Below, in pieces: positions 2,918 to 64,000 of a stretch of 64,000 nucleotides of DNA. Under the pieces are notes generated by a model. It saw nothing but the letters and a program-made list of their open reading frames with translations. It was not told the DNA's origin and searched no databases. The position numbers were made by a program, and so were the translations under genes. Every line of letters starts with the position of its first letter. Within the stretch, counting starts at the first letter, position 1. The stretch is from Patescibacteria group bacterium (GTDB taxonomy: Bacteria; Patescibacteriota; Microgenomatia; UBA1400; PJMF01): the NCBI GenBank assembly GCA_040879165.1, contig JBBDKV010000013.1, positions 71,967 through 135,966 of the forward strand, written 5' to 3'.

Positions 2918-5242
2918 TTATTCAAAGAGTCTGCTAAGTTGGCGTCTATGGAGTATGCAATAGACAAAACAGAAAATTATTCCTGCTACAGAAATGAACG
3001 CACTTCTAAAAAACCATGCTGGATAATAATAGACTTCCACATATTTTGATCCTGCAGGAAGTTCTATCGCTCTCATCCCTTCAAAATTTTGAACCACTAA
3101 CTGCTTGCCATATTCATCTCTAGCCCGAACACTTTCGTCATATCTATCAGCAAGTAGCAACGTTTGATCGCTTATGGTTTCCGCAAATTCTAATACCACT
3201 TTGTTGGGATCTTCTCTCATTTGCTTTAAAATCAACTCATCATCAGACTGAAATCGAAATCTTGATGCAACATCATTTAGTTCAAGAGTAGCGTACACTT
3301 CTGTGTTGTCTACAACAGGAAACTGACTAAGGTCTTCCCGTACTTCAAACCACTCATCTACCAGATAATATTTGACAGCCCAGTCACTCAAAAGTGAATT
3401 TTCTACGTCAATATAATCAATAAAGTTAATCCTAACTTCATCAGAATTTTTCCAGATCAAACTATAATCTCTGGGCAACAGTGTGGTGTATCCGTGCACC
3501 AAGTGCACTCCATAGACCATATTCCAATTAGGAGTGTACCCTTGTTGCAATTGTTTCAACACATTGTGTTCTTGTAACTCCACCTCATCAATAAAAGAAT
3601 CGCTGAATGGATCACGCACAACCAACGCTTCCCAATACGTCCCAAAATCAGTGTAGGGCATGTTGGTATTTCTTGTCAAAACTCTTGATCTACCCTCCAG
3701 TACATCTACAGGTAGTTGTTGCCGATTGCTTTCAATCTGCTTAAAGGTTGGATACACAGAATTTTCAGCGAACAAAAACATCCCCTGAGTACTGAATACC
3801 ATTTCAACTGAAAGAACCAAGACTAGTATCCAAAATTTCTTTTTGTAGTACAGCCAAAGCGATCCGATGAAAAACAGAAGTGACACCGCCAAACTACCAC
3901 TAATAACTCTTGCTATCACTGCGTCTCTTTCCAACGTGTGAAACGCACTCGCTGACAAACGATGTTGAGTTACTTGATTTAAGAAGTTCCAAAGCAAATC
4001 AGGATTCTGTACTGCCAAATAATATGTAGCAGTCAAAACCACACACGAAGCTAGCACAGTAATTACTAAATATTTGTAATATTTTTCAAAAAAGCGCAAA
4101 TACTCTAAGCTTCGAATACTCCAAAAAATAACACTCACGCTCGCTAAAATGAGCAACATACTTGGATACCTACCAATTCTCAGCAGTGGCACGGCTTTTT
4201 GAATAAGATCATATCCAGGCAAATACTCTCCAAGCGAAAAAACAATCGCAACAATGGTGCTTGATGCAAACAACCACATCCACCTATCCCATTTTTTCCA
4301 AAATAAAAATGACAAAGCTACACCAGTAATACCAAGCAGCGTTACCACAAACACAACATTGGGTTGTCCGCTCCAAGCAGGTCCCCACTTCATGCCAGCA
4401 ACAGCACTGTCAAAAAAGTAAGGAGCCAACGGCTTTATTAACATGGCAGGGTGCAACGAACCTACTTGAGCTTGTTCTAATGACTGATCCATCCTAGTTG
4501 ACTGCCATAGCAGTTGAACAAAAGGAATCCAAGCCACCGCAGAGATTATGAGTGTATAAATAGCAGTTTCCGTCCAGCTACCCATCCAACGTAAAAATTG
4601 TTTCTTTTTTTGCAATCTCCAACCTGAAATTAATACTGCATATCCAATTGAAAGCAGTACATGCTGAGGATACCCACCCAAAAACTGCAATAACACTACC
4701 ATCGCAAACAAAAGACGCGCAGTTCTATGATCTAAAATGTGCCAGCCCAACCAAGCTATCCAAGGCAACCAAGTCAAAGACTGCAAGGTAGAAAAATTAT
4801 GCGTACTACCAGCAATTTGAGTCGAAAGCATCCAAAAAAATGCAGCCAAATATTGTTGCCAAATTTGTTTTAAAAATAATTTTGACAAAAAAAACATACC
4901 AACTGCTGTCAACAAGTAATGAACAACAATCAAAATATTTAACGCTACTGCAGGAGAAAAAAACATAAATAAAAGAGTGGATGGATACAGAACGGATTGA
5001 TTAATATCCCCAATCCAAGGTAATCCAGAGAAAATATATGGATTCCACAACGGAAGTATTCCCTGCAACAACCACTGTGCTGTAAAAATTTTTCCAGGCA
5101 CCATTAGTGAAAAATTATCACCAAAAAAAAGTGTCTGATTAAAGTAAAAAGGCAAAAATCGCACTGAAACTAAGATAAACGCACTGCAAAGTAAAACTAT
5201 CAATTGATGAGAAGTAATAAATGTATGTAATTTTTTTATCAT
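2918..5242 (-). CDS. YfhO-family polytopic membrane protein, probably a glycosyltransferase that acts on lipid-linked sugars.
   Basis: About 775 aa with many predicted TM helices and a large C-terminal extracytoplasmic domain. It sits immediately downstream of a GT2 polyprenyl-phosphate glycosyltransferase, the CsbB/YfhO-like arrangement. The start is ambiguous because the ORF track extends to 5314 and overlaps the GT2 gene. Confidence 0.55.
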   Translation of the reverse strand: MIKKLHTFITSHQLIVLLCSAFILVSVRFLPFYFNQTLFFGDNFSLMVPGKIFTAQWLLQGILPLWNPYIFSGLPWIGDINQSVLYPSTLLFMFFSPAVALNILIVVHYLLTAVGMFFLSKLFLKQIWQQYLAAFFWMLSTQIAGSTHNFSTLQSLTWLPWIAWLGWHILDHRTARLLFAMVVLLQFLGGYPQHVLLSIGYAVLISGWRLQKKKQFLRWMGSWTETAIYTLIISAVAWIPFVQLLWQSTRMDQSLEQAQVGSLHPAMLIKPLAPYFFDSAVAGMKWGPAWSGQPNVVFVVTLLGITGVALSFLFWKKWDRWMWLFASSTIVAIVFSLGEYLPGYDLIQKAVPLLRIGRYPSMLLILASVSVIFWSIRSLEYLRFFEKYYKYLVITVLASCVVLTATYYLAVQNPDLLWNFLNQVTQHRLSASAFHTLERDAVIARVISGSLAVSLLFFIGSLWLYYKKKFWILVLVLSVEMVFSTQGMFLFAENSVYPTFKQIESNRQQLPVDVLEGRSRVLTRNTNMPYTDFGTYWEALVVRDPFSDSFIDEVELQEHNVLKQLQQGYTPNWNMVYGVHLVHGYTTLLPRDYSLIWKNSDEVRINFIDYIDVENSLLSDWAVKYYLVDEWFEVREDLSQFPVVDNTEVYATLELNDVASRFRFQSDDELILKQMREDPNKVVLEFAETISDQTLLLADRYDESVRARDEYGKQLVVQNFEGMRAIELPAGSKYVEVYYYPAWFFRSAFISVAGIIFCFVYCILHRRQLSRLFE

Positions 5243-5253
5243 TCGGTGATATT

Positions 5254-5943
5254 TTAATACGGCAACAATCGAATGCCAAAGATAACCCTCAATGCACCAA
5301 TTCCATCCTTCCAAGTGATTTTCTTACCCTCAGAAAAATCTCTCCCCACATAACTAATTGGCACTTCATAGATTCGATAACCGCTGCGTAATAATTTACA
5401 CGTAATTTCTGGTTCAATATCAAATCCTTTAGACCGTAAGTTCAGACTGCGCAAAAGTTTTGTGGGCATCACCTTGTAACAAGTCTCCATATCAGAAAGC
5501 GTTGTATTATACAAAATATTGACCACAAAGTTCAAAAAAGCATTGCCCATTCGATGCCAAAAAAGCAAGTTTAAGTGCGGCCCAAGAAAGCGCGAACCAT
5601 ACACAATTTCATTCTTGCCTTTTTTAATGGGCTCAAGCAGGGCAGAAATATCTTCAGGATCGTACTCAAGATCGGCATCTTGAATCATCACGTAGTCTTT
5701 GGTTACTTTCTCAAGTCCAAACCTGATAGCACTACCCTTACCGCCATTTTCTTTCCTAAAATATTTTATTTTTTTGTCTTTTACAGTCTGAACTTTTTTT
5801 TCCGTTCCATCTGTTGAGCCATCATTTACAACAATAATCTCTTGCACAACGCGCTGTGCTAATAACCGCTGCAAGATTTGCTTCACGGTTGCTTCTTCAT
5901 TAAATACGGGCACTATGACAGATAGCGAAACTTTTTTGTTCAT
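5254..5943 (-). CDS. GT2-family glycosyltransferase, polyprenyl-phosphate sugar transferase of the GtrB/CsbB/DPM1 type.
   Basis: SVIVPVFNEE...VVNDGSTDGT...DADL motifs typical of GT2 dolichyl/undecaprenyl-phosphate glycosyltransferases. Confidence 0.8.
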   Translation of the reverse strand: MNKKVSLSVIVPVFNEEATVKQILQRLLAQRVVQEIIVVNDGSTDGTEKKVQTVKDKKIKYFRKENGGKGSAIRFGLEKVTKDYVMIQDADLEYDPEDISALLEPIKKGKNEIVYGSRFLGPHLNLLFWHRMGNAFLNFVVNILYNTTLSDMETCYKVMPTKLLRSLNLRSKGFDIEPEITCKLLRSGYRIYEVPISYVGRDFSEGKKITWKDGIGALRVIFGIRLLPY

Positions 5944-29341: not shown

Positions 29342-29689
29342 CTAACTGGGAAGCTGCTCGCTCTCGATTAAAATACCATTGACCATCGACATTGTATCTC
29401 TTAATGAAATAACCAACTCCTGAGAAAGCTCCATAGTTTCTTCATCCAGCGAAATTTCTTCTAGAGTAAGATTTGATTCTTGCAAGCAGGTATCAAACGC
29501 ATCTTGCAGCCAATCCCCGTGCTCTTCCACCCAAGACTGCCGCTCCAACTTGGGTAAAATCAAAACCTGACGGACAACCTCTGAAACTGCCTTCAGTTCA
29601 CGAGTCTTGAGATATAAATTAAACTTTGTCGATGAAGTAGTCACACTTCGCAACGTCACGCTTGGTACAAAATCATTCATATAATTCAT
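29342..29689 (-). CDS. Hypothetical acidic protein upstream of yidC.
   Basis: 115-aa ORF. It lacks the RnpA RNR motif, so it is not called rnpA. Confidence 0.3.
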   Translation of the reverse strand: MNYMNDFVPSVTLRSVTTSSTKFNLYLKTRELKAVSEVVRQVLILPKLERQSWVEEHGDWLQDAFDTCLQESNLTLEEISLDEETMELSQELVISLRDTMSMVNGILIESEQLPS

Positions 29690-30028
29690 TGCAAAACTCC
29701 AAGTTCTAGTAGTTCTAGATCTACTTCTGGCATTTTAGCGGTATTTGAATGGCGATAGCACCCCTCTGAGTACTTGCCACGCACATACGCTGCTTGGCGG
29801 GCATAGCCATAACTACTTGAGGAGCTACTTAAGGAGGACAAAATTGCCGCAGATGAGCAAATAGGTGCAAGAGAAATGTGGGTAGGGTTTTGCAATGGGT
29901 TCACCATAACGTAAGTATTATATACCATATGGATACGCGTCTTGCTAGTGTTGAGCGCAGGTGCCAGTCAAATCACTACAATACCCATTGCTCTCTAATC
30001 TGGCAAAAGCAGGTATAATATACCTTCT

Positions 30029-31171
30029 ATGCTACGAATCCGCGTCAAAAGCACATCCGAACAACAATCAGCTATCCAACAAGCCACCGCTATTTTGAGT
30101 GCGGGTGGCTTGATTATTTTCCCAACCGAGACCACCTATGGAGTCGGTGTTGACGCCACCAACCCAGCCGCTGTCCAAAAATTACTCAAGTACAAATCTC
30201 GCAGAGAAGGCAAGCCACTCTCCATCGCAGTCAGCTCAGTTGCAATGGCCGCTGAATACGTTGCAGTAAATGACCAAGCAGCCGCTGCCTATCAACAATT
30301 TTTACCCGGTCCCGTCACAGTTGTATCTCAGAGTCGAGGTCGAGTTGCTCCAGAGGTGGCATCTGAATTTAACACGTTGGGCATTCGCATTCCAGATTAC
30401 CCACTGATTCTGCAGCTGATCAACGCGTATGGCAAGCCCATTACCGCCACCTCTGCAAATATGTCTGGAGGAAAGCGTCCATATGATATAGACAGCCTAC
30501 TCAGCCAACTGCCAAAAAAACAGCTTGGGTTAATCGACTGCGTGTTAGATGCGGGAAAATTACCGCCAAATCCGCCATCATTAGTTATTGATACTAGTTT
30601 TTCCGCACCGGTCACGCTGCGCGCTCGGGACGAGCGCGCGTCAGATGAGCGGAGTTTGGATTCAGATGAGGAAGGCTTGGATTCGGCTGCACCCACAACC
30701 TTAGTCTCAGACAGTCCAGAGATGACAGAGCGTATCGCAGGCACCTATTTGCTCAAATATTGGAATGACATTACATCGCGCGGCTTAGTGATTGGGCTGG
30801 ATGGCGAGCTTGGCACCGGCAAAACAGTTTTCGCCAAGGGAGCAGCTGATTTTCTGAAAATACAAGACAAAATGAGCTCACCCACATACACCTATATCGA
30901 AAGTTATGACTTCCCTCGTCATGGCGTGCGTGGACAGCTACATCACTGTGATTTTTGGAAGATCGCCAGTCAAGATGAACTGCGACTGCTGGGAGTTGAT
31001 ACGCTGTTGGGCGCAAAACAAGTGGTGCTGATTGAATGGTGGCAACAAGTAGCCCAATGGCTGTTGCCACAACTGACAATCAAAAACATTCCACTCGTGC
31101 AAATTTTGATACAAGATCCAAACAAAGGAACTGAGCGACGCATACAAATCGATGAATCACATGCCAAATAA
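30029..31171 (+). CDS. Fused t6A biosynthesis protein: TsaC/YrdC (threonylcarbamoyl-AMP synthase) domain joined to a TsaE (YjeE P-loop) domain.
   Basis: The N-terminal half has the YrdC pattern (GGLIIFPTETTYGVG...ATSANMSG). An acidic linker follows. The C-terminal half has the TsaE P-loop GLDGELGTGKT and ...LIEW. Confidence 0.75.
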   Translation: MLRIRVKSTSEQQSAIQQATAILSAGGLIIFPTETTYGVGVDATNPAAVQKLLKYKSRREGKPLSIAVSSVAMAAEYVAVNDQAAAAYQQFLPGPVTVVSQSRGRVAPEVASEFNTLGIRIPDYPLILQLINAYGKPITATSANMSGGKRPYDIDSLLSQLPKKQLGLIDCVLDAGKLPPNPPSLVIDTSFSAPVTLRARDERASDERSLDSDEEGLDSAAPTTLVSDSPEMTERIAGTYLLKYWNDITSRGLVIGLDGELGTGKTVFAKGAADFLKIQDKMSSPTYTYIESYDFPRHGVRGQLHHCDFWKIASQDELRLLGVDTLLGAKQVVLIEWWQQVAQWLLPQLTIKNIPLVQILIQDPNKGTERRIQIDESHAK

Positions 31172-32231
31172 TCAAGATCCACTCATTCTAGCAATAGACA
31201 CTTCCTGCGATGATACCAGTGCCGCCGTGACACAAGGGTGGGTGGTGCGGTCAAATGTGGTGGCTTCTCAAGCTCAGTTGCATAAGAAATACGGCGGCGT
31301 TTTTCCCACCGTTGCCAAGCTTGCCCACGCTCAAAACATTACAGCGACTGTTTCAGCCGCACTGCAACAGGCTCGCATCAACCCTGAGCAGCTATCAGCT
31401 GTAGCGGTCACCATTGGTCCAGGATTGGCTCCGGCTCTGGAAGTAGGGATTCGATTTGCCGAGCAATTCGCCCAACAACATACTAAACCGCTGACTGCCA
31501 TCAATCACCTCGAGGGACATCTACTCTCTGTCCTGGCCAGGCCAAACTCGCGAACAACCGCTCAAGCTCAACCAAATCTTGACACAGTGTTCCCTGCGCT
31601 CGGTCTAATTATCTCTGGAGGACATTCCCAATTTGTGCTCATTAAGCAACTCGGCACCTATCAAATACTCGGCACTACACTTGATGATGCTGCAGGTGAA
31701 TGCTTGGATAAAATTGGTCGGATGGTCAATCTTGGTTATCCTGCTGGTGCAACGATTGAAATTTTAGCGCAACAAGGCAATCCTGAAGCAATTGAGTTCC
31801 CCCTCCCGCTCACTCACCGCAAAGATTTTGACCTCAGTTTTTCTGGCCTAAAAACCTTTGCCCGCAACACGCTTGCCACAACTTCCCCAAAGAAACTTCA
31901 AGACGCGCAATTCATCAAAGATTTTTGTGCCAGCGCCCAGGCAGGTGTGTTCCGACACCTCCTTTACAAGTTTGAACGAGCACTAGCCGCGCACCCAGAG
32001 ATACACAGCGTCTGGCTGGGCGGGGGAGTGGCTGCAAATATGCAATTGCGCAAAAAGCTGCGCAGTACAATCCGACAAACTAACAAGAAAATCCCCCTAC
32101 TCACTCCCTATTCAAAAAAACTTTGTGCAGATAATGCGGCAATGATTGGGGTGGCGATGAACGCAAACACACAAAATACTGTTTATACAAGTGATCAACT
32201 GCAAAGACAGCCGCGGCTTAAATTTGGCTAA
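31161..32231 (+). CDS. tsaD: tRNA N6-adenosine threonylcarbamoyltransferase TsaD (Kae1/Gcp family).
   Basis: LILAIDTSCDDTSAAV, the metal-binding INHLEGH, and GGGVAAN. The ~355-aa length fits TsaD rather than TsaB. Confidence 0.8.
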   Translation: MPNNQDPLILAIDTSCDDTSAAVTQGWVVRSNVVASQAQLHKKYGGVFPTVAKLAHAQNITATVSAALQQARINPEQLSAVAVTIGPGLAPALEVGIRFAEQFAQQHTKPLTAINHLEGHLLSVLARPNSRTTAQAQPNLDTVFPALGLIISGGHSQFVLIKQLGTYQILGTTLDDAAGECLDKIGRMVNLGYPAGATIEILAQQGNPEAIEFPLPLTHRKDFDLSFSGLKTFARNTLATTSPKKLQDAQFIKDFCASAQAGVFRHLLYKFERALAAHPEIHSVWLGGGVAANMQLRKKLRSTIRQTNKKIPLLTPYSKKLCADNAAMIGVAMNANTQNTVYTSDQLQRQPRLKFG

Positions 32232-32414: not shown

Positions 32415-33140
32415 TCATTGATTATTAATTTCACTCTGGTGCTGTTGAAGCTTCCTCAGAGCTTCTTGAGCCTGATCAAGAGCTCTTACTGCTTCACGTA
32501 CTAGCGATGCATTATCATTCTCGCCTTGAGTATCTACCTCTGTGCCACCTCTCTCTGCAATGTTGGCAGTAGTTTCTCCATCGGAGAAAGTAGCTGGCTC
32601 CCCAACAGGTATATCATTGGGTACTTCAACATTTAAGTCTGAATTCAGTGGTGTCGGCTGCGACTCAGCCGCCAAAGCGACATCGCTATTGGTCCCAGAA
32701 GCAGGCGCTGCTCCATTAGTTCTCCGCTCAGGTACCAATGTATCTTTCTCAGTTTGATCGTAGTCCAACGAATCTGTAACTCCTCTGTCATCTTGAGTAG
32801 TATCGGCTGACACAACGCTATTCACCTCATCTGCCTGAGTGTCATCCCCAACTTCCGAAGCTGACCCCTCTTGGGAAGAGCCTGTTTGAGATTTATATTT
32901 CTCATCCAACTCATCAAGCTTCAAAAATTGCTCAAGAGTTAACTCTTGTGGGCGATCTTTGTATACTTTGCGCACTGCTTTAAGGAGCTGCTGAACTCGA
33001 GATTCATCACCAGTTTCTAAACTACTTTCTATCTCATCCAATGAGCTTGAAACTACCGCTCCGACCTCACGATTTGACTCAGCATTATCAAGAGCTTCAT
33101 TTTCTTCTGTACTTACTTCCGGCTGTGTGGTTTCACTCAT
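32415..33140 (-). CDS. Hypothetical acidic, low-complexity protein.
   Basis: Long ORF rich in E/D/S/T with no motif recognised. Confidence 0.3.
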   Translation of the reverse strand: MSETTQPEVSTEENEALDNAESNREVGAVVSSSLDEIESSLETGDESRVQQLLKAVRKVYKDRPQELTLEQFLKLDELDEKYKSQTGSSQEGSASEVGDDTQADEVNSVVSADTTQDDRGVTDSLDYDQTEKDTLVPERRTNGAAPASGTNSDVALAAESQPTPLNSDLNVEVPNDIPVGEPATFSDGETTANIAERGGTEVDTQGENDNASLVREAVRALDQAQEALRKLQQHQSEINNQ

Positions 33141-33261
33141 ATATAGTTTCTGTAAATTGTCTCTGCACAACTATGATCACATTTTTCTACATGAGCTGCA
33201 ACCAGTAAAAAAAGTTGAGATACTATATTCATTAGCAATAGGCAACACAGCTCTCTGCTAC

Positions 33262-47380: not shown

Positions 47381-49591
47381 TTATAACGGAATTGAGAATA
47401 TTGTTGAGCCGCTGAGCACATAGGCTGTTGCGGTGGATTCTTGAATAAAGAGGTCTGTGGCAGCAGCTAGTGATACATTTTTTATTTCTCGGAGAAACTG
47501 GCCGTCTTTGGTCAAAACTACTAACCGTTGCTGCGCTGACTCAAGAATATAGAGATTCTCAAACTCTTCTCTAGTTACAATGGCCAATCGACCAGTAAAC
47601 GGCTCAGATAAGCCACTGACAGCAAACTCTGCTTGCGATCCCGAGGTATATTTGCGAATTCTTCCATCCTGCGTAGCAATCCAGATATCCCCATCAATCG
47701 CCCAAGATGCCACTTCTTCAAACGAAACACCCAACGGACCAATCAGCCAGCCGATCGGATCAGAAAAATCACTGCCATCAAACAGATACCGATATATATC
47801 TCTTTGATCTGGATTAAAAACATAGAGGTACGGACCAAACGAACCTACGAGCGTGCCTTCTCGATTTGAATCTCCCTCATCTATAATTAAGGCTGGTTCT
47901 GCTGAACTCTCAAGCGGCATTTGGTACAGACCTTGAGCAAGAAAGACCGCACTACTTGCGTCACGCATCACCGCAGATTCAATTGAACCAACAGCTGAAA
48001 CATCAACGGCTTCCATTTGATCTGACTGAAGATCAATTACAATACCTTGTTGAGCTTCCTGATCCAGGACTAATGCTTGGTTATCGCTGGCAATTACGCT
48101 TGAGGCGATGAAACTAGACTCTACTGTTCGCAAATCAAATGCCACAGTCAGCTCTCTCAACTCATCTCTCCCAGAGATAGCCTCCACCAACGCCTGTGTA
48201 TCCGTGCGAAGCTGCTGAGCCAACTCCAAAAGAACGTCCTTGTTTTCATTTTCTGCATCAATAACCACCTCATCAAGCGCAGCAAGCAACCCTTGAGATT
48301 CCTCACGAGCAGTCACTGGGTCACTACTGGCCTGAGCGCGAACGCCATCCAGTCGAGCTTGATACGGCTCGATGATCGTTTGCGCCTCAGTTTGCTGTGC
48401 TTCATATCGCCAATCTAAATAAAACCAGACCGCCCCTAAAACTACCGACACACCAACTATGCTAATAAGCAGTATTCTCAATCGCTTGATTCGTTGCGAT
48501 GGAACATACTCTCGAGTAAAAATTAACTGGCGCAATACAGGAGCCAATTGAGCGATCTGTTTTTTGCAATTTTTCAGAAAGCGCACTACTAAACCCAGCA
48601 AGGATACGAGTACACGCCATGATTTTGCGAAGAGAGCCTTCCACGGAAAACTGTGCTTCGACCTGGATTTTTGTGGGGGCACACCCAGGTTTCGGTCTGC
48701 ACCATCTTCGAACATTTTCGATTGCGCTTGCTCACTAGTACCCAACGCCGTCGGCTGTTTTGCATTTGGCGACTCAGACCGAGCATCAACTCGCGGACTA
48801 TCGGAAGCTACTTCCGAACCAGACGGGGCAGCTGTGTCAGTTGGCGGCTCCGGTTTAGACTGAGTTTCTGACTGAGCTTCCACTAGTGGCTCAGTCGGGG
48901 GAGTTGGATCAGTTGTGAGTGTTGACTCAGTTGGGGAAATTGGCTCAGTCGAGGGCATTGGCTCAGAATCCGGTACATTTTTATCATGCGAGCCCGTTTT
49001 TTGTTCACTTTCTGAGTAATTTTTTTCTTCAACTATTGCAAATCCCAAAGCGCAGCGCGCAGAAGCATCCAAAGAATGTATCGCGGGCACAATTGAAGTC
49101 ACCACGCTATCGGTGTCGAATCCTTTTTGATAGGTGAGAGCAACAGCAGATAAAAATTGCTGCGCATCTAGCGTGGCAAAAATAAATACATCATCCAACT
49201 GAGCTTTACCTTGAATAATTTCAATACTGGCATCAGAAGTCAATACTTCACCAACCGTGTCACTTCGCTTCAAACTAATCGAGCCATGATACGTTGCCAA
49301 AATACTTCTTCCTGGACGGAATACGCCACCTGCCAAGGAACACTGGCATTTCAAATCAGAAAGCTGAGCAATGATGTCTTCAAAGGCTTGATACAGTGCC
49401 TCGGCACTTCTTGGGGGAGCAGCGGTAATATCCTCGACAATGCCTTTGCCAATTGATACAGCGCTTTCACCTTCCACGGCAATAGCAATTACGCAGCTAA
49501 TATTTGTTTCCGTTACCACGTCTATCACATGAGACCAGCCAGTAAACTGTGGCAAACTAACGATTGGAGTTACAGAGATCCTTTGCACCAT
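47381..49591 (-). CDS. Large hypothetical transmembrane protein: cytoplasmic N-domain, Pro/Thr/Ser-rich linker, one TM helix and an extracytoplasmic, possibly beta-propeller, C-domain.
   Basis: 736-aa ORF, a low-complexity PT-rich region and a single central TM helix (LRILLISIVGVSVVLGAVWFYL). No catalytic motif recognised. Confidence 0.4.
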   Translation of the reverse strand: MVQRISVTPIVSLPQFTGWSHVIDVVTETNISCVIAIAVEGESAVSIGKGIVEDITAAPPRSAEALYQAFEDIIAQLSDLKCQCSLAGGVFRPGRSILATYHGSISLKRSDTVGEVLTSDASIEIIQGKAQLDDVFIFATLDAQQFLSAVALTYQKGFDTDSVVTSIVPAIHSLDASARCALGFAIVEEKNYSESEQKTGSHDKNVPDSEPMPSTEPISPTESTLTTDPTPPTEPLVEAQSETQSKPEPPTDTAAPSGSEVASDSPRVDARSESPNAKQPTALGTSEQAQSKMFEDGADRNLGVPPQKSRSKHSFPWKALFAKSWRVLVSLLGLVVRFLKNCKKQIAQLAPVLRQLIFTREYVPSQRIKRLRILLISIVGVSVVLGAVWFYLDWRYEAQQTEAQTIIEPYQARLDGVRAQASSDPVTAREESQGLLAALDEVVIDAENENKDVLLELAQQLRTDTQALVEAISGRDELRELTVAFDLRTVESSFIASSVIASDNQALVLDQEAQQGIVIDLQSDQMEAVDVSAVGSIESAVMRDASSAVFLAQGLYQMPLESSAEPALIIDEGDSNREGTLVGSFGPYLYVFNPDQRDIYRYLFDGSDFSDPIGWLIGPLGVSFEEVASWAIDGDIWIATQDGRIRKYTSGSQAEFAVSGLSEPFTGRLAIVTREEFENLYILESAQQRLVVLTKDGQFLREIKNVSLAAATDLFIQESTATAYVLSGSTIFSIPL

Positions 49592-49695: not shown

Positions 49696-49962
49696 TTATA
49701 ACAGCACAAAAAACAAACCAAGAACGAATAGAGCTACCAGTAAATGTGCAAAACCGACAAAAAATATGATTGGCGAGAAGGAAGTAATGAGCGTATTTTT
49801 CATTATCTGAATTTGTCGAACCACAATCACGGCAAAAACCGAGTAGCAAAGAGCCGTCAAAATAAATAAAAACTTAAAAAGACTAATCAAAATACTACTT
49901 TGATCAATCGCGGGAAAAGCGAACATTGAAGAACCAGTGTCAAGCACAAACTGTAGCAACAT
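49696..49962 (-). CDS. Small hydrophobic membrane protein, hypothetical.
   Basis: 88 aa with three predicted TM helices. It is adjacent to the membrane PH-domain gene. Confidence 0.3.
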   Translation of the reverse strand: MLLQFVLDTGSSMFAFPAIDQSSILISLFKFLFILTALCYSVFAVIVVRQIQIMKNTLITSFSPIIFFVGFAHLLVALFVLGLFFVLL

Positions 49963-50843
49963 TAATTTATTCTCCCTTCAATTTTTTCTCGCTCTTCTTC
50001 TAGAATTAACTCATTGAGCAACTTTGTAACTCGGGCTGGGTGTGGAACATCACGAAAATCAAACTCTCGTTGCTGAGCTGCTGTCTGCACAAAGACCGTC
50101 CCAAAATCAAATAACGACCTAATTGCTCCGCTAGTCACCGCGGTCACATCTTCAATGTTATCTGTTTTTGCTGATGATATATTGCGATAGATCAGTGACA
50201 AAAAGTCCACGTCAATAATGCGCTCATCAGTAATAATATTGACATTAAAAAACCATGATAAAAAGGACTCAATGATAAAACCTGTTAACAACAGATACCA
50301 AATAATCAGTGCGGCAAACTGATACGTTCCAGGCAGGAAGTCGACAAGACCTACTGAGCTGAATAAAATCGGTAAAAAAGCAAATACAATTGATCCCAAA
50401 ATCCATGGAAGCTGGGTCAACGCGTGCTTACGCAGCACTAAAATAACATGCTCATCAAGATGTTGGGTAGCAAAACGAAAATTAATCGGCTTGGGGGAGT
50501 ACGAGGCAAATGGATTGCTTGATGATTTTTCCTGCCGCATCACATCTGAGTACTCATCAACGTTGCGATGCGCTCCATTCCAGCGAGGAGTAGGATCGCC
50601 TGGATGAGTGGTGATTTGCTGTTCCTGACTGTCCTGGCTACTCGGTGCCGAAGCATCCGCTCGCACTGGAACTTGCTCTTGTGATCGGCTTTCTGCCACC
50701 CCCACGCTGGTGGTTTCTTCTTGGCGCTGAGCCCTTCTACCGTGCGAGCGCTTCGTACGAACTCCACGCAAAATTTTGCGCTGATGATTAATAGAGCTAG
50801 GATCTCCTTGTCTCATTGAACTGTCAAAAATCACGTCTGCCAT
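49962..50843 (-). CDS. Membrane-flanked bacterial PH-domain protein (YdbS/YdbT-like, bPH_2).
   Basis: Two TM helices followed by a PH-like domain. The N-terminus is Ser/Gln-rich and low-complexity. Confidence 0.45.
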   Translation of the reverse strand: MADVIFDSSMRQGDPSSINHQRKILRGVRTKRSHGRRAQRQEETTSVGVAESRSQEQVPVRADASAPSSQDSQEQQITTHPGDPTPRWNGAHRNVDEYSDVMRQEKSSSNPFASYSPKPINFRFATQHLDEHVILVLRKHALTQLPWILGSIVFAFLPILFSSVGLVDFLPGTYQFAALIIWYLLLTGFIIESFLSWFFNVNIITDERIIDVDFLSLIYRNISSAKTDNIEDVTAVTSGAIRSLFDFGTVFVQTAAQQREFDFRDVPHPARVTKLLNELILEEEREKIEGRIN

Positions 50844-50940
50844 GCACGTATTATAGCAGCAATACCTGAGGAACGCCTTGATCAATCACAAATCAAGCAT
50901 CTAGCTATTTTTTTCGCACAAAAGGCGTATACTAGTAGCT

Positions 50941-59078: not shown

Positions 59079-59199
59079 TGTTCTGGCCTCGACCTATCGT
59101 CCCAATCAGTTGCCCGATTAGTATTGTCAGCGCTGGGGCGTTTCAAGACTCTGTTCGGGAAGGGAAGAGTTGGGACCACCCCGCTCCAGAGACCAGAAC
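59079..59199 (-). rRNA. rrf: 5S ribosomal RNA.
   Basis: The reverse complement contains ...GGTGGTCCCAACTCTTCCCTTCCCGAACAGAGTCTTGAAACGCCCCAGCGC... The terminal helix GTTCTGGTCTC/GAGGCCAGAAC pairs. Confidence 0.85.
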
Positions 59200-59608
59200 A
59201 CAACGCTCGTGTTGCTAGCAGACTTGTAGTGAAATAAGAATAATACAGTGATCGCTTCCTTATTTCGCTATAAGTCTAGTATACCGCGTATTCGCGTCGG
59301 TACTATGGTAAGTAGTACGATTGTTAAAGAGTGCGCACACTCGCTAAAAAGTGAAGAAAGTCAAAGGTATCTCAGAATCAAAAAATCCAATACGTATTCA
59401 TTGCTGAATAGATAATGAACTTTTTTCTCCTGGGACACAGTAAAAGCCATGATGTAGCGCTACACGTTATGAAAGCGATAACATCAACCAAATTGTATGT
59501 TCAATCGACACTTAGTACAGTTAAGCTAAACCTGTCACCAGGCTTACACTGACTGCCTATCAACGTGGTAGTCTCCCACGGGTCTAATGGAGATGATTAA
59601 TCTTGAGT

Positions 59609-59643
<35 letters not shown>

Positions 59644-59786
59644 TGTAGAAATGTAGCTACCCTGCACTGCGCTTGACAGCAACAACAGGTACACTAGGGA
59701 TTTCCTCACCCCGGTCCTCTCGTACTAGGGGCAAATTCTCTCAATCATCTAACGCTGACGGCGGATAGAGGCCGACCTGTCTCACG

Positions 59787-60519
59787 CATGTTAATTCCTC
59801 CTGTTACCAGGGGCATGGACTATACCACCACCCTACATAATTACGTTTGTAGGGGACCGACGTGTTAGCCCTGAATCTATGTTCAGGACTCTGACCATTC
59901 GTTACATGGTCAAGTCTCTACGGGGTCAATATTCCCTTGTTTCTGAGGTGATTACGAACCACCCGAGCTAGTACTGTGCGTTTTTTGGAATAATTTAATC
60001 TTCCAAATTGATCAATCATTTGTGCGAGTTGCACAAAATCTTGAGGAGATTGAATATGTTCAGAAAAATCTAAAATTTGCAACATAAGTTTCGCCTGTTT
60101 TTGTTTCAATAACAAAAACGGAGAAACCGCCTGCAAAATATATCGAATTGATGGACGATCACCGATCGTAAACTCGATAATTCCATCATTTCGTTTCCTG
60201 ATATATCCAACACCTAAACGCTTACGAAGTTGTTCAAATAACACTGTCGCTGTTTCTTTTTGAAATAAAACAACTGAAGGAGCTATTTGAAAATCATATT
60301 TGTAGGTTACATTAGGCTTTAGGCGAACATAAATGCTGCCGTCAGCGTCTAAAAAACCAGCCAAATAAATTAACAACTCACGTTTTGTCATAGTACTAAC
60401 AGAAATACGACTTCCCTCGGGATTATCCTAACACATGACAGGTTAATAAATGTGATAGGACTTCCCCGATATGAGTCAGTTTTAGCTTCCCACATTACTG
60501 TGGGGCACCGCCATAGTTG
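59787..60519 (-). mobile_element. Group I-type intron in 23S rRNA (E. coli ~2593 region, the I-CreI-type site) carrying a LAGLIDADG homing endonuclease ORF.
   Basis: The exon sequence GGGTTCAGACCGT | CGTGAGACAGG is split by a 733-nt insert. The insert ends in G and follows a U. It contains a single-motif LAGLIDADG ORF. Confidence 0.8.
59918..60391 (-). CDS. LAGLIDADG homing endonuclease, single-motif and I-CreI-like.
   Basis: LIYLAGFLDADGSIYV motif; 157 aa; located inside the intron. Confidence 0.85.
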   Translation of the reverse strand: MTKRELLIYLAGFLDADGSIYVRLKPNVTYKYDFQIAPSVVLFQKETATVLFEQLRKRLGVGYIRKRNDGIIEFTIGDRPSIRYILQAVSPFLLLKQKQAKLMLQILDFSEHIQSPQDFVQLAQMIDQFGRLNYSKKRTVLARVVRNHLRNKGILTP

Positions 60520-60565
60520 ACGGTCTGAACCCAGCTCGCGTACCGCTTTAATTGGCGAACAGACA

Positions 60566-60599
<34 letters not shown>

Positions 60600-60603
60600 T
60601 GCA

Positions 60604-61490
60604 CATAAATCCTGTATTTCTACAAGTGTAGACTATATCTTCACCCCTCATTTCAATGCGAGGGGGTCTGGCGTATTATAGAAGGTTAGATTTATCCACT
60701 TAAAAGTGGATAGGCCTTTCTATCTCGTTATAAAAACTCAGTCGTTACGGGGTCAAAGAAAGTTTGTACTGCATACAGCTGACAATATGTGGCGAAATTG
60801 TGGTCAAAAATCTATCTCTACTTCTCGCTGGTATATGCAAACGCGCATATTTTCCCGCAAAATGAATCGATGTTTCTATCCCATAATTTTGCAAAAGTAC
60901 ATATTGCAGTTGTTTATGCTCTAGTAGAGTAAATGAAGATGTGCAGAGATATGCGCCAGATTTATCTGTGCGCATATAGCCATCGTCCATATACCATACT
61001 GCTAAGGCTATGGGTGTTTTTAATAAAGATTGTATGTTGGAAGGAATAATTTTCTTTCCATCTACATAAAACAATGATCTGTAGTGGTCGAATAGAGAAA
61101 GACTGAGTGTGGCAAAACGCCAACGCTTCGTCATCTTCTGATCTCGTCCACTATGTAGCATTGCTTTAGGAGGTCTTCCGACAAAAGGCTTTAAAACGCT
61201 GGTACAGCCAGGTTACATATTCCTTTTGTCTATCTGTTTGTTCAATTTTTAATCGAACATTAAGACCATTCTTTTCTAAACAACCATCACCTAAAATTTT
61301 TTCAACAAGTATTTGTTCTTGTTGAAAGGACAAACTTTCTCGACTTCCCACGGTATTCCCATTTATATCCATATCTCCAAAGTATCATAAATACCCGAAG
61401 AAAAGAAGAAGATATATGAAGGGTTCACCGTTATAAGCCAGATGTTTTCTCAGGAATTACTTCCTGAGTGACCCAAACCCTTAATGGGTT
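60604..61490 (-). mobile_element. Second group I-type intron in 23S rRNA, in the peptidyl-transferase-centre region (after ...GATGTCGGCT, E. coli ~2500-2512). It carries a frameshifted double-motif LAGLIDADG gene.
   Basis: Exons ACCTCGATGTCGGCT | CATCGCATCCTGG are separated by 887 nt. The intron ends in G. Confidence 0.75.
60745..61372 (-). pseudogene. LAGLIDADG homing endonuclease split into two ORFs, 61166-61372 and 60745-61161, by a frameshift.
   Basis: The upstream ORF has ILGDGCLEKNG (motif 1). The downstream ORF, in a different frame, has LAVWYMDDGY (motif 2). Frames differ by +1. Confidence 0.6.
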
Positions 61491-62063
61491 AAGCCGACAT
61501 CGAGGTAGCAAACCGCGCCGACGCTAGGGACGCTTAGGCGCGATAACTCTGTTATCCCCAAGGTAGCTTTTATCCGATAAGCCCGGTGTCTTCCACAAAA
61601 CACACGAGGATCACTATAACCTGCTTTCGCACCTGCTCGGCTTGTATGCCTCACAGTCAAGCACCCGTATGCTATTGCACGTCCAGCCTGATTTCCATCC
61701 AGGCTAAGGGTACCATTGCGCGCTTGCGTTACCTTTTAGCAAGCAACCTCCCCAGTTAAACTACCCACCAAACAGTGTCTCCTCTGAAGTTTGCATTCAG
61801 ATTGGGTGAGCTATTGTACACAAAACGAGTGGTATTTCACTGATGTCCCTCACATAATGTGAGGGACTCCCACCTATACTAAACAATTCCATATACAACA
61901 ACAGTGTCAAGTTGTAGTAAAGCTCTATGGGGTCTTTTTGTCCTGCCGTCAGTAGGCCGCATCTTCACAGCCATTTCAATTTCGCCGAGTAGTAGTTCAA
62001 GACAGTGTGAGACTGGTTAAACCTTTCGTGCGGGTCGCCAATTAAGCGACAAGGAACTTCGCT

Positions 62064-63148
62064 CATTAATACATTTTTACATGTATCTTGTTACTATCCC
62101 ATTAAATGGGACGATGTAGACATTTCTGCTACATTCTCTACGTCGCCGTAGAGGTCGGACTATCTCTTATCACCAGTGTGGTGATCCTAGCGTATAGTCT
62201 CTGAGGATTCTTGAAACACGTCTTGAAAACAATATTTTCTTGTTCTTCCTTTTCCCACATTTATTTTCTCACGCAGTACTAATAATTCTCTCAAACCATC
62301 TTGAGAAAGATGTTTTTTAAGAACCATTATTTTCACTGCTGATTTGAATAAATTAAAATTAGTTTTCTTTCGTTTAGAAAAGAAACTAAATTTTTGAAAA
62401 AATGGAACAATATTTCTTGATAAATCAATTGGACTGGTCACATCATACGAATAGAGACCATCTCTTCTTCTTTTCAGAATACCGCATTTGAATATTTGGA
62501 GTAGTAAAAGAAGCATTGTTTTTTCTTTTTGAGAAACATTAAAACTAAGTACGGGTTGCCACCCAACACTATAGTCTTTCTTTTTTCTCAAAGAGATATT
62601 AAAACTTCCTTCGCCATCAACAAATCCTGCGATATATCCCCCAAGTTGCTGAGAAATTGATATATCATTTGCTTCAACCGTGTAGTCAAGTCTTTCCTGC
62701 TGGTTTTCTGCTAATAGAACATTTTTAGTGCTACTCATAATGATGGCATTCTTACTATATAGTAAGAATCTTACATAAAGCGTAGCGACTAGCTCTACTT
62801 CTTCAGCCCTTGAATTCCTTTTTCTGGGCACAGATTTTCCAGCATATAGCTAGGTTTTACTATGGCAACGATTTTGTTTTACCATAGAACAGTTCACTTT
62901 TGTTACTATTCCGCTAAAGCGGAACGCTCTGCACATTTCTGACAGAGTCTGCATGTCTCCATGCAGGTCGGACTATATCATCTTTTCTTTGAATAAAAGA
63001 AAAGGTTAGCGTATAGTCTCTGAGGATTTCCCGCTAAGCGGGATCTTTCCTGCTGATTGTCTCTATTCAATTGATTTTCACTGCAATTTTACAATTACGA
63101 GTACAATTGACCTCACGAGATGTTCCAGCATTTGGCTAACTTTTATAA
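62064..63148 (-). mobile_element. Intervening sequence in the 23S helix-69/71 region (between E. coli U1917 and A1932). It contains two homologous group I-type catalytic cores and one LAGLIDADG ORF.
   Basis: The 5' exon ends GTAACTAT (U1917) and is paired by an intron IGS GUAGUUAU. The 3' exon resumes AGCGAAGTTCCTTGTCG. Two P7-like GACTA...TAGTC core copies lie at 62152-62215 and 62966-63030, with homologous P9 regions. Confidence 0.7.
62187..62738 (-). CDS. LAGLIDADG homing endonuclease.
   Basis: YIAGFVDGEGSF motif. The start was set at MSSTKNV; the ORF track begins at 62831. Confidence 0.8.
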   Translation of the reverse strand: MSSTKNVLLAENQQERLDYTVEANDISISQQLGGYIAGFVDGEGSFNISLRKKKDYSVGWQPVLSFNVSQKEKTMLLLLLQIFKCGILKRRRDGLYSYDVTSPIDLSRNIVPFFQKFSFFSKRKKTNFNLFKSAVKIMVLKKHLSQDGLRELLVLREKINVGKGRTRKYCFQDVFQESSETIR

Positions 63149-64000
63149 CTACAATGTTTCATAGTTACTGCTGCCGTTCACCGGGGCTTCGATTGTAAGC
63201 TTATCTCGCCGAAGCGAGAAAAACCCACGCACTTAACCTTCCGGCACTGGGCAGGCTTCAGCCCGTATACGGCCTCTTACGAGTTTGCACGGACCTGTGT
63301 TTTTGGTAAACAGTCCATCTCACAACTTTAGCTGCGTCCCTACACCATCCCTCACCAAAATGGTGAGGGGGGTGAGGGAAGGGCATCTCTCGAAATTACG
63401 CCCAGCTGTTTTGCCGAATTCCTTAAACTACTTTCTCTCGCTCTCCTTAGTCTACTCGACCAGACCACCTGTGTCGGTTATCGGTACGATTTGATATGAG
63501 TTTCCTTGCGAAGCTTTTCCAGGATGCTGAAATCACGCACATCTCTCTTGCCCGAAGGCTCAAAAGACCCATCACACTTCAAATAAACGCTTGTCCGGAT
63601 TTGCCTAGACAAACTGTTTTAGTGCTTAGAGACAACATTCACTGCTGCCCATACGCTATCCTGCACCGTCCCTCCCCAAGTCAAACAACTCATACCAAGG
63701 ACTGGAATATTAACCAGTAATCCATCGGCTACCCCGCCACTATAGCGGGCTCACCTTAGGGTCGCCTAACCCGCACACGACGAACGTGGGTGCGGAAACC
63801 TTGGTCATTCGGAGTTGAGGATTCTCACCTCAATTTCGTTACTCATGCCGGCATTCTCACTTCTGATCGCTCCAGCGGCTCCTCACGGGCCACCTTCAAT
63901 GCACACAGAACGCTCCCTTACCACTCCCTTGTCAAAAGACAAAGAAATCCTAAGCTTCGGTTGAATGTTTAAGCCTCGTTGAATTTTCGGCGCATATACC

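Follow-up and report, generated by a model that had tools for sequence, protein, structure and literature searches.

A gene fusing TsaC to TsaE overlaps tsaD and is evolutionarily fixed in a large clade of Patescibacteria

Threonylcarbamoylation of tRNA adenosine 37 (t6A37; t6A hereafter) uses enzymes of the TsaC, TsaD, TsaB and TsaE families. Here, we analyze a gene of this pathway in a stretch of 64,000 nucleotides (nt) of contig JBBDKV010000013.1 from a Patescibacteria group bacterium, referred to as the window, whose positions are used throughout. The gene encodes a TsaC domain and a TsaE domain in a single polypeptide of 380 amino acids (aa) and overlaps the gene for the transferase TsaD. 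The locus contains the following features:

30029..31171, + strand: tsaC~tsaE fusion gene, a single uninterrupted open reading frame (ORF) of 380 aa plus stop codon.
30029..30622, + strand: TsaC domain (YrdC-type, type 1 threonylcarbamoyl-AMP synthase), residues 1-198, assigned by PF01300, motifs and fold.
30623..30691, + strand: interdomain linker, acidic and disordered, residues ~199-221, delimited by AlphaFold2 confidence and alignment.
30692..31168, + strand: TsaE (YjeE) P-loop ATPase domain, residues ~222-380, assigned by PF02367, motifs and fold.
31152..32231, + strand: tsaD (tRNA A37 threonylcarbamoyltransferase), 359 aa, assigned by TIGR03723.
31152..31171, + strand: overlap of the fusion gene and tsaD, 20 nt in different frames, read from the sequence.

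The two halves of the 380-aa protein match two separate families of the same pathway. In searches with hidden Markov models (HMMs), the Pfam family Sua5_yciO_yrdC (PF01300) covers residues 22-198 with an E-value of 4.7e-43 and 147.2 bits (cut-off 25.1), and the Pfam family TsaE (PF02367) covers residues 249-351 with an E-value of 1.1e-23 and 84 bits (cut-off 26.6). Similarly, the NCBIfam equivalog models for L-threonylcarbamoyladenylate synthase (TIGR00057) and TsaE (TIGR00150) score the fusion at 155.5 and 68.9 bits, above their respective cut-offs of 123.2 and 60.1, and the TsaD model TIGR03723 scores the 359-aa product of the downstream gene at 330.8 bits against a cut-off of 296.1. As sequence matches, the family scores of both the fusion and TsaD are far beyond chance. 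The solved structures nearest by sequence are TsaC2, Sua5 and YrdC for the N-terminal half and HI0065, YdiB and Thermotoga maritima TsaE (TmTsaE) for the C-terminal half. A Pfam scan found no SUA5 domain in the fusion protein, whose C-terminal half is TsaE instead. The identity of the protein as TsaC plus TsaE is thereby assigned with very high confidence, and the original prediction, made from the letters of the DNA, of a YrdC-type TsaC joined to TsaE by an acidic linker is borne out by the Pfam and NCBIfam models as well as by the motifs and folds described below.

Sequence motifs were read in an alignment of 30 sequences, i.e., the window protein and 29 homologues with 52-74% identity. In the TsaC half, the KxR...SxN tetrad (K56-S-R58 and S142-A143-N144) and the PTET motif are invariant. 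The KxR...SxN residue pattern sets TsaC/Sua5 apart from YciO paralogues. The tetrad of TsaC has been mentioned in published work (PMC4615747), and, judged by homology, motifs and fold, the domain is of the type predicted to make threonylcarbamoyl-AMP (TC-AMP) from threonine, bicarbonate and ATP. In the TsaE half, G259, L261, G262, G264, K265 and T266 of the Walker A motif (G259-E-L-G-T-G-K265-T266) are invariant, as are S284, P285, T286 and Y287 of the SPT(F/Y)T peptide (S284-P-T-Y-T288, with T288 read in the window sequence only), while H306-x-D308, E336-W337 and R370 show little or no variation. Canonical TsaE carries a switch II of the form HxDxYR. In this clade, switch II reads H306-x-D308-x-W310-K311, an apparent change of Tyr-Arg to Trp-Lys. 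In TmTsaE, Arg83 is the switch II residue that couples ATP hydrolysis to reset of the transfer complex (PMC6614819).

The predicted fold agrees with these assignments. The AlphaFold2 model of the fusion consists of two confident domains, with a mean predicted local distance difference test score (pLDDT) of 86.7 and values mostly above 88 in the TsaC domain. Foldseek matches the TsaC domain to E. coli YrdC (1hru; template modeling (TM) score 0.80-0.82, root-mean-square deviation (rmsd) 3.1) and to the catalytic domains of Sua5/TsaC2, and the TsaE domain to Haemophilus influenzae HI0065 (1htw; TM score 0.80, rmsd 2.3), Bacillus subtilis YdiB (5np9) and the TsaE chain of the T. maritima TsaBDE complex (6n9a_E).

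In TsaC2, the SUA5 domain likewise comes after a TsaC domain and a flexible linker, in the topological position that TsaE takes here, and the switch II of the TsaE domain is off consensus (WK for YR); the TsaE half could accordingly be read as a degenerate, non-catalytic remnant, kept as a structural appendage in place of SUA5. However, the Walker A Lys and Thr, the SPTYT peptide, the Glu-Trp pair (E336) and R370 are invariant, the score lies above the TsaE equivalog cut-off, and neither the 64-kb window nor any of the 81 related loci examined revealed a separate tsaE. We consider a remnant very unlikely. By HMM, motifs and fold, the C-terminal domain is a bona fide TsaE with predicted ATPase activity, and not another P-loop protein, a possibility raised with the original prediction.

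A survey of genomes for the YrdC-TsaE architecture, suggested at the same time, found it throughout the best-matching relatives. In a 5.8-billion-protein collection, all 120 best database relatives combine PF01300 with PF02367 in proteins of 348-509 aa; they are drawn from NCBI, JGI, ENA and Logan assemblies and include one 100% match, from a metagenome-assembled genome (MAG) filed at NCBI as 'Patescibacteria group bacterium', in which a neighboring gene bears locus tag WDZ94_02905. Their product names, where present, are 'L-threonylcarbamoyladenylate synthase' or 'hypothetical protein'. A scan of GTDB with one genome per species gave at least 600 pattern matches and at least 590 confirmed relatives, and in the best 80 of these, which were examined as loci, the query is matched over both domains as far as the contig reaches. 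Titles of fusion-bearing records include Pacebacteria/Paceibacterota, Woesebacteria, Beckwithbacteria (CP011210.1, complete genome), Dojkabacteria, Nomurabacteria and 'Saccharibacteria', and the fusion is kept in lineages whose proteins share only 41-45% identity with that of the window (e.g., Beckwithbacteria and Dojkabacteria). Fusion-bearing genomes that are closed or nearly so include BOKR01000001.1 (1.17 Mb), BOKX01000001.1 (1.15 Mb), CP011210.1, DASPLQ010000012.1 (1.41 Mb) and JGI 3300068451 Ga0613826_000001 (1.21 Mb). [quoted passage not shown]

The breadth of this sample also bears on the idea that a frameshift or an assembly error has joined two genes. Nothing was found in favor of such an artefact. 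More than 100 independent assemblies, drawn from four sources and including contigs 1.0-1.4 Mb in length and one record entitled complete genome, carry the same uninterrupted ORF, which excludes an artefact for practical purposes; in all 30 aligned homologues the linker keeps the reading frame, and a split version of TsaC and TsaE was seen in none of the 81 related loci. The fusion is therefore evolutionarily fixed and standard in a large clade of Patescibacteria, although unusual for bacteria generally. The description of the architecture as unusual holds in that it is missing from the t6A reviews consulted; it does not hold within this clade, where it is the norm and where public records already contain the sequences, labelled 'L-threonylcarbamoyladenylate synthase'.

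As originally described, tsaD follows the fusion gene and overlaps it. The 3' end of the fusion gene (...ATC GAT GAA TCA CAT GCC AAA TAA) contains the tsaD ATG, and the overlap persists if the second in-frame ATG, at 31161, is taken as the start. Downstream neighborhoods were counted in the 73 of the 81 related loci that have at least 400 nt of DNA beyond the fusion. tsaD abuts or overlaps the fusion stop codon (within 60 nt) in 54 of the 73 and starts 61-300 nt away in 7 more, i.e., it lies within 300 nt in 61; in another 8 it is 0.5-1.9 kb off, behind inserted ORFs, which brings the number within 2 kb to 69. It is missing from the flank in the remaining 4 (L029; L037; L074, Beckwithbacteria; and L075, Dojkabacteria). 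This adjacency and overlap suggest co-transcription and, possibly, translational coupling. Upstream, a perfect TATAAT lies at 30014-30019 (+), 9 nt 5' of the fusion ATG; no Shine-Dalgarno sequence was found between the two, and no -35 match was reported for this element. Judged from these letters, the fusion mRNA may be leaderless or carry a very short leader.

The product of tsaD looks like an ordinary bacterial TsaD and resembles heterodimer-forming TsaDs much more than it does the mitochondrial Qri7. Its E-values are ~1e-52 to 1e-54 against TsaD of E. coli, Salmonella, T. maritima and Aquifex, versus 1e-34 against Qri7, and in alignment with the E. coli and Salmonella proteins it retains HLEGH (the metal-binding HxxxH) and DNAAMIG with its C-terminal Asp.

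The arrangement can be compared with several known systems. The canonical bacterial t6A machinery (E. coli YrdC/YeaZ/YgjD/YjeE; T. maritima TsaB2D2E2) has the same families, catalytic motifs and folds, and the chemistry is presumably shared (i.e., TC-AMP synthesis, transfer to A37 and ATPase reset). However, the canonical components are separate proteins, whereas here TsaC and TsaE form one polypeptide, the operon consists of two overlapping genes, and neither operon nor window contains tsaB. TsaC2/Sua5 resembles the fusion in having a YrdC-type domain at the N terminus, then a flexible linker, then an alpha/beta domain at the C terminus, but that last domain is SUA5, while here it is a TsaE P-loop ATPase, which is part of the pathway's second step and not of TC-AMP synthesis. 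The archaeal Kae1-Bud32 (MJ1130 / PRPK; Haloferax volcanii HVO_1895) is likewise a natural t6A fusion with an ATPase/kinase-type regulator (PMC4615747). There, the regulator sits on the transferase (Kae1); here, it sits on the TC-AMP synthase and the transferase is separate. Furthermore, Bud32 is no relative of TsaE, and the two bind the transferase on different faces (PMC6009658).

Along the same lines, Pandoravirus TsaN, TobZ and HypF join an adenylate-forming YrdC-like module to a module of the same pathway. In these proteins the producer is placed directly on the transferase domain, with an internal channel in TobZ and HypF; here, by contrast, it is attached through a disordered tether to the ATPase partner of the transferase, and tsaD remains an ORF of its own, in another frame. 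Mycoplasma genitalium MG259 (TsaC/HemK) is a further bacterial TsaC fusion in a reduced genome, with a partner, a methyltransferase, that lies outside the t6A pathway (PMC4615747). Within Patescibacteria, Southlakia epibionticum ML1 also has tsaC and tsaD adjacent; however, its TsaC (196 aa) and TsaE (196 aa) are separate, and tsaE is paired with a 130-aa TsaB (PMC10633639 supplement). A TsaC-TsaE fusion is not among the fusions listed in the t6A literature consulted (TsaC2/Sua5, Kae1-Bud32, MG259, TobZ, HypF, TsaN), and a literature search found no paper that describes it or that links t6A genes to CPR/Patescibacteria. What is new here is recognition and interpretation, as the sequences were already public with both Pfam domains precomputed.

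How could such a fusion work? In characterized bacteria, TsaE in its ATP-bound form docks at the mouth of the TsaD active site and keeps tRNA out, the two competing for a single site; in the structure of T. maritima TsaBDE, its 'totally conserved' SPT(F/Y)T peptide dips into the TsaD active site, and Glu108 of TmTsaE is the Mg ligand (PMC6009658). Multiple turnovers require that TsaE hydrolyze ATP (the 'reset', which readies the transferase for the next round), and TC-AMP is delivered by TsaC/TsaC2 at an undefined point of the cycle (PMC6009658, PMC6614819). In E. coli, TsaB and TsaD are recovered in pull-downs with TsaC (PMC4615747). The best explanation of the locus, in which we place moderate confidence, is a genuine, evolutionarily fixed bifunctional t6A37 gene in which docking of TsaE tethers TsaC at the site of transfer. 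The fusion would fix TsaC and TsaE at 1:1 stoichiometry, and the cycle can be rationalized into three steps. (i) Docking: the TsaE domain would dock on TsaD and bring the TC-AMP producer within the linker's length of the TsaD active site, from which tRNA would be absent because TsaE is docked there. (ii) Loading: labile TC-AMP could then be loaded locally, not by diffusion. (iii) Release: on ATP hydrolysis, the fusion would come off and leave the TsaD site open to tRNA, so that loading would precede both release and tRNA binding. The partner of TsaD in this scheme could be a normal TsaB, a miniaturized TsaB or a second TsaD.

The linker is central to this reading. In the 380-aa ORF it is acidic and contains ...RARDERASDERSLDSDEEGLDS..., and the pLDDT falls below 50 at residues 198-218. 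It is the sole unconserved part of the protein: among the 30 homologues it is unalignable, and its length and composition are free to vary. It spans ~20 residues in the window and ~20 to 170 among relatives, with the linkers of P0068 and P0116 (~100-170 residues) being of low complexity. A flexible linker of variable length fits a tether and not a rigid channel.

Several points weigh against a tethered hand-off. Pandoravirus TsaN (TsaD-TsaC-SUA5-TcdA) forms no channel between its domains (PMC10484737), and a fusion does not, for that reason, by itself imply channeling. The HxDxWK switch II may signal an ATPase coupling that differs in detail. TsaB, the dimerization partner of TsaD, was not located: the 64-kb window yielded no TsaB-like ORF, and neither did 80 related genomes within 10 kb of the fusion. 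Lastly, an unconserved linker of up to 170 residues fits equally well with a neutral fusion in a streamlined genome.

The last point leads to an alternative in which two adjacent genes of the same pathway became joined during genome streamlining, a neutral 'Rosetta-stone' fusion whose domains remain independent and whose benefit is, at most, co-expression at equal dosage. The disordered linker agrees with this, as do the compact genomes and overlapping genes of Patescibacteria and the precedent of TsaN, a fusion of t6A domains without a channel. It accounts less readily for the persistence of the fusion in the lineages at 41-45% identity, for the lack of any split version among the 81 related loci, and for the choice of partners, i.e., the producer of an unstable intermediate and the one subunit that docks at the active site of its consumer. 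We regard a neutral origin as possible but rather unlikely, and the tethered bifunctional enzyme as the better account.

In Firmicutes-type operons, tsaB (and rimI) lies between tsaE and tsaD. Here, the TsaE domain is followed by tsaD, usually with an overlap that leaves no room for either gene, and the search for TsaB was extended by several routes. In the 64-kb window, the window TsaD as phmmer query returned no TsaB-like ORF, and 50 window ORFs between 100 and 870 aa, scanned with Pfam or NCBIfam and including the range of 100-150 aa expected for a mini-TsaB, revealed no TsaB; the original statement that no tsaB is nearby stands for the window. In the window and within 10 kb of the fusion in the 80 genomes, no TsaB was found by phmmer with E. 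coli TsaB or by an HMM iterated from its matches (ASKHA N-lobe). The E. coli query has useful sensitivity, since it did recover the paralogous TsaD in 67 loci. Similarly, a regular expression for the GPGS[FY]TG-type loop of TsaB had no match, nor did a search of IMG/VR with E. coli TsaB, and a degenerate DNA pattern for the TsaB loop found one TsaB only, which is non-CPR and has 55% GC.

These negatives are in line with a published census. Meheust et al. 2019 reported TsaB in 415 CPR genomes, versus 1942 for TsaD and 1528 for standalone TsaE, and labelled TsaB 'depleted' in CPR; in non-CPR bacteria, the respective numbers were 840 for TsaB, 995 for TsaD and 949 for TsaE (PMC6744442, Supplementary Data 1). 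Southlakia epibionticum, a cultured Saccharibacterium with a closed genome, carries directly after tsaE a tsaB of 393 bp, annotated by PGAP, whose 130-aa product has no Pfam match and an RNase-H-like N-lobe by structure (PMC10633639 supplement). The TsaB deficit in the CPR census is probably, at least in part, a failure of detection, because Patescibacteria can have miniaturized TsaBs; and as a cultured member has a TsaB that Pfam does not see, an unseen tsaB is weak evidence of absence. In most bacteria, t6A genes are essential. In Southlakia, tsaC, tsaD, tsaE and tsaB were all scored as non-essential by transposon sequencing (PMC10633639 supplement).

The empty neighborhood of the fusion, the tight tsaE-tsaD spacing and the census numbers could be taken together as signs of a TsaB-independent system of two polypeptides, in which TsaB has been lost, TsaD forms a homodimer as in Qri7, and the fusion acts on that homodimer; such a system would be compatible with either a tethered or a neutral fusion. 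Conversely, the negative covers only ~64 kb of the window's genome, the window TsaD is far nearer to heterodimer-forming TsaDs (E 1e-53) than to Qri7 (1e-34), and Southlakia has its Pfam-invisible TsaB of 393 bp beside tsaE. Moreover, the binding partner of canonical TsaE is the TsaB-TsaD heterodimer, to which it attaches asymmetrically; it binds neither homodimer (PMC6009658). TsaB independence is thus speculative, and we hold it to be improbable. More doubtful still is the combined proposal that the clade makes t6A with TsaC~TsaE and TsaD as its two polypeptides, without TsaB or with an unrecognized substitute, the tether making TC-AMP loading part of the TsaE-driven reset.

Some neighbors of the fusion were considered as possible partners. 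The ORFs inserted between the fusion and tsaD include a HIT-family-like ORF (L043), an ORF pair shared by L062 and L064, and a 187-aa orphan (L001). As a TsaB substitute or a conserved extra subunit they were rejected, being mutually unrelated, and the L001 ORF has no family match. The shared pair (~70-90 aa and ~230 aa; L062 6075-6958 and L064 11065-11957, both +) looks like a small mobile two-gene module. The HIT-like ORF, recognized by sequence motifs only, lies between the fusion and tsaD in L043 (6631-7044, +), just 3' of tsaD in L079 (5594-6010, -) and ~1 kb downstream of the fusion in L074 (12024-12440, -); in Southlakia, a HIT gene is immediately 5' of tsaE-tsaB (PMC10633639 supplement). 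This may point to an adenylate hydrolase that is repeatedly associated with t6A genes, though in 3 of 81 loci only.

On the other side, the fusion is flanked by a divergent gene:

29342-29689, - strand: orf115, a 115-aa acidic protein with no Pfam/NCBIfam match, divergent from the fusion.

In 69 of the 81 related loci, as in the window, orf115 adjoins the fusion, and it heads a co-directional block of orf115, yidC, Band7, groES and groEL. In L024 and L047 it is found just 3' of tsaD, an order explained by local inversion of the t6A gene pair. The AlphaFold2 model is a three-helix bundle with a pLDDT of 70 whose PDB matches are non-significant (e.g., BAG domains, E ~0.5), and the family was not found in more distant fusion-bearing lineages, even by HMM. 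As a TsaB- or Pcc1-like partner, orf115 was rejected: it moves with the yidC/groES/groEL block, is missing in distant lineages and has a generic fold.

Just past tsaD, 32415-33170 (-) encodes a very acidic, low-complexity protein of 251 aa with no family match and no homologue in the 81 loci. Three large ORFs, all on the - strand, have no Pfam match at E <= 1e-5 (2918-5314, 798 aa; 47381-49591, 736 aa; 49962-50885, 307 aa). The end of an rRNA operon occupies 59081-64000 (-), with the 5S rRNA at 59081-59197 and the 23S rRNA, cut by the window edge, at 61403-64000 (-). The latter is interrupted by a group I intron at 62949-63189 and a LAGLIDADG endonuclease ORF at 62187-62831, and a further LAGLIDADG ORF lies at 59918-60391 (-). 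In CPR, rRNA genes are known to carry insertions.

The route of TC-AMP from TsaC to TsaD, and the timing of TsaC in the TsaE cycle, were explicitly left open by Luthra et al. 2019 (PMC6614819). A fixed TsaC-TsaE fusion hints, in Rosetta-stone fashion, that TsaC acts while TsaE is bound to the transferase, and it offers a ready-made construct for comparing fused with split domains and for varying linker length. In practical terms, NCBI and JGI product labels that name only one activity hide the TsaE half, and name-based surveys would score these genomes as lacking TsaE. If TsaB were truly absent, the minimal bacterial t6A machinery would be redefined: a system of two polypeptides would, if true, rank as a third minimal architecture, alongside Qri7/Sua5 and the bacterial system of four proteins, and would provide the first TsaE acting without TsaB.

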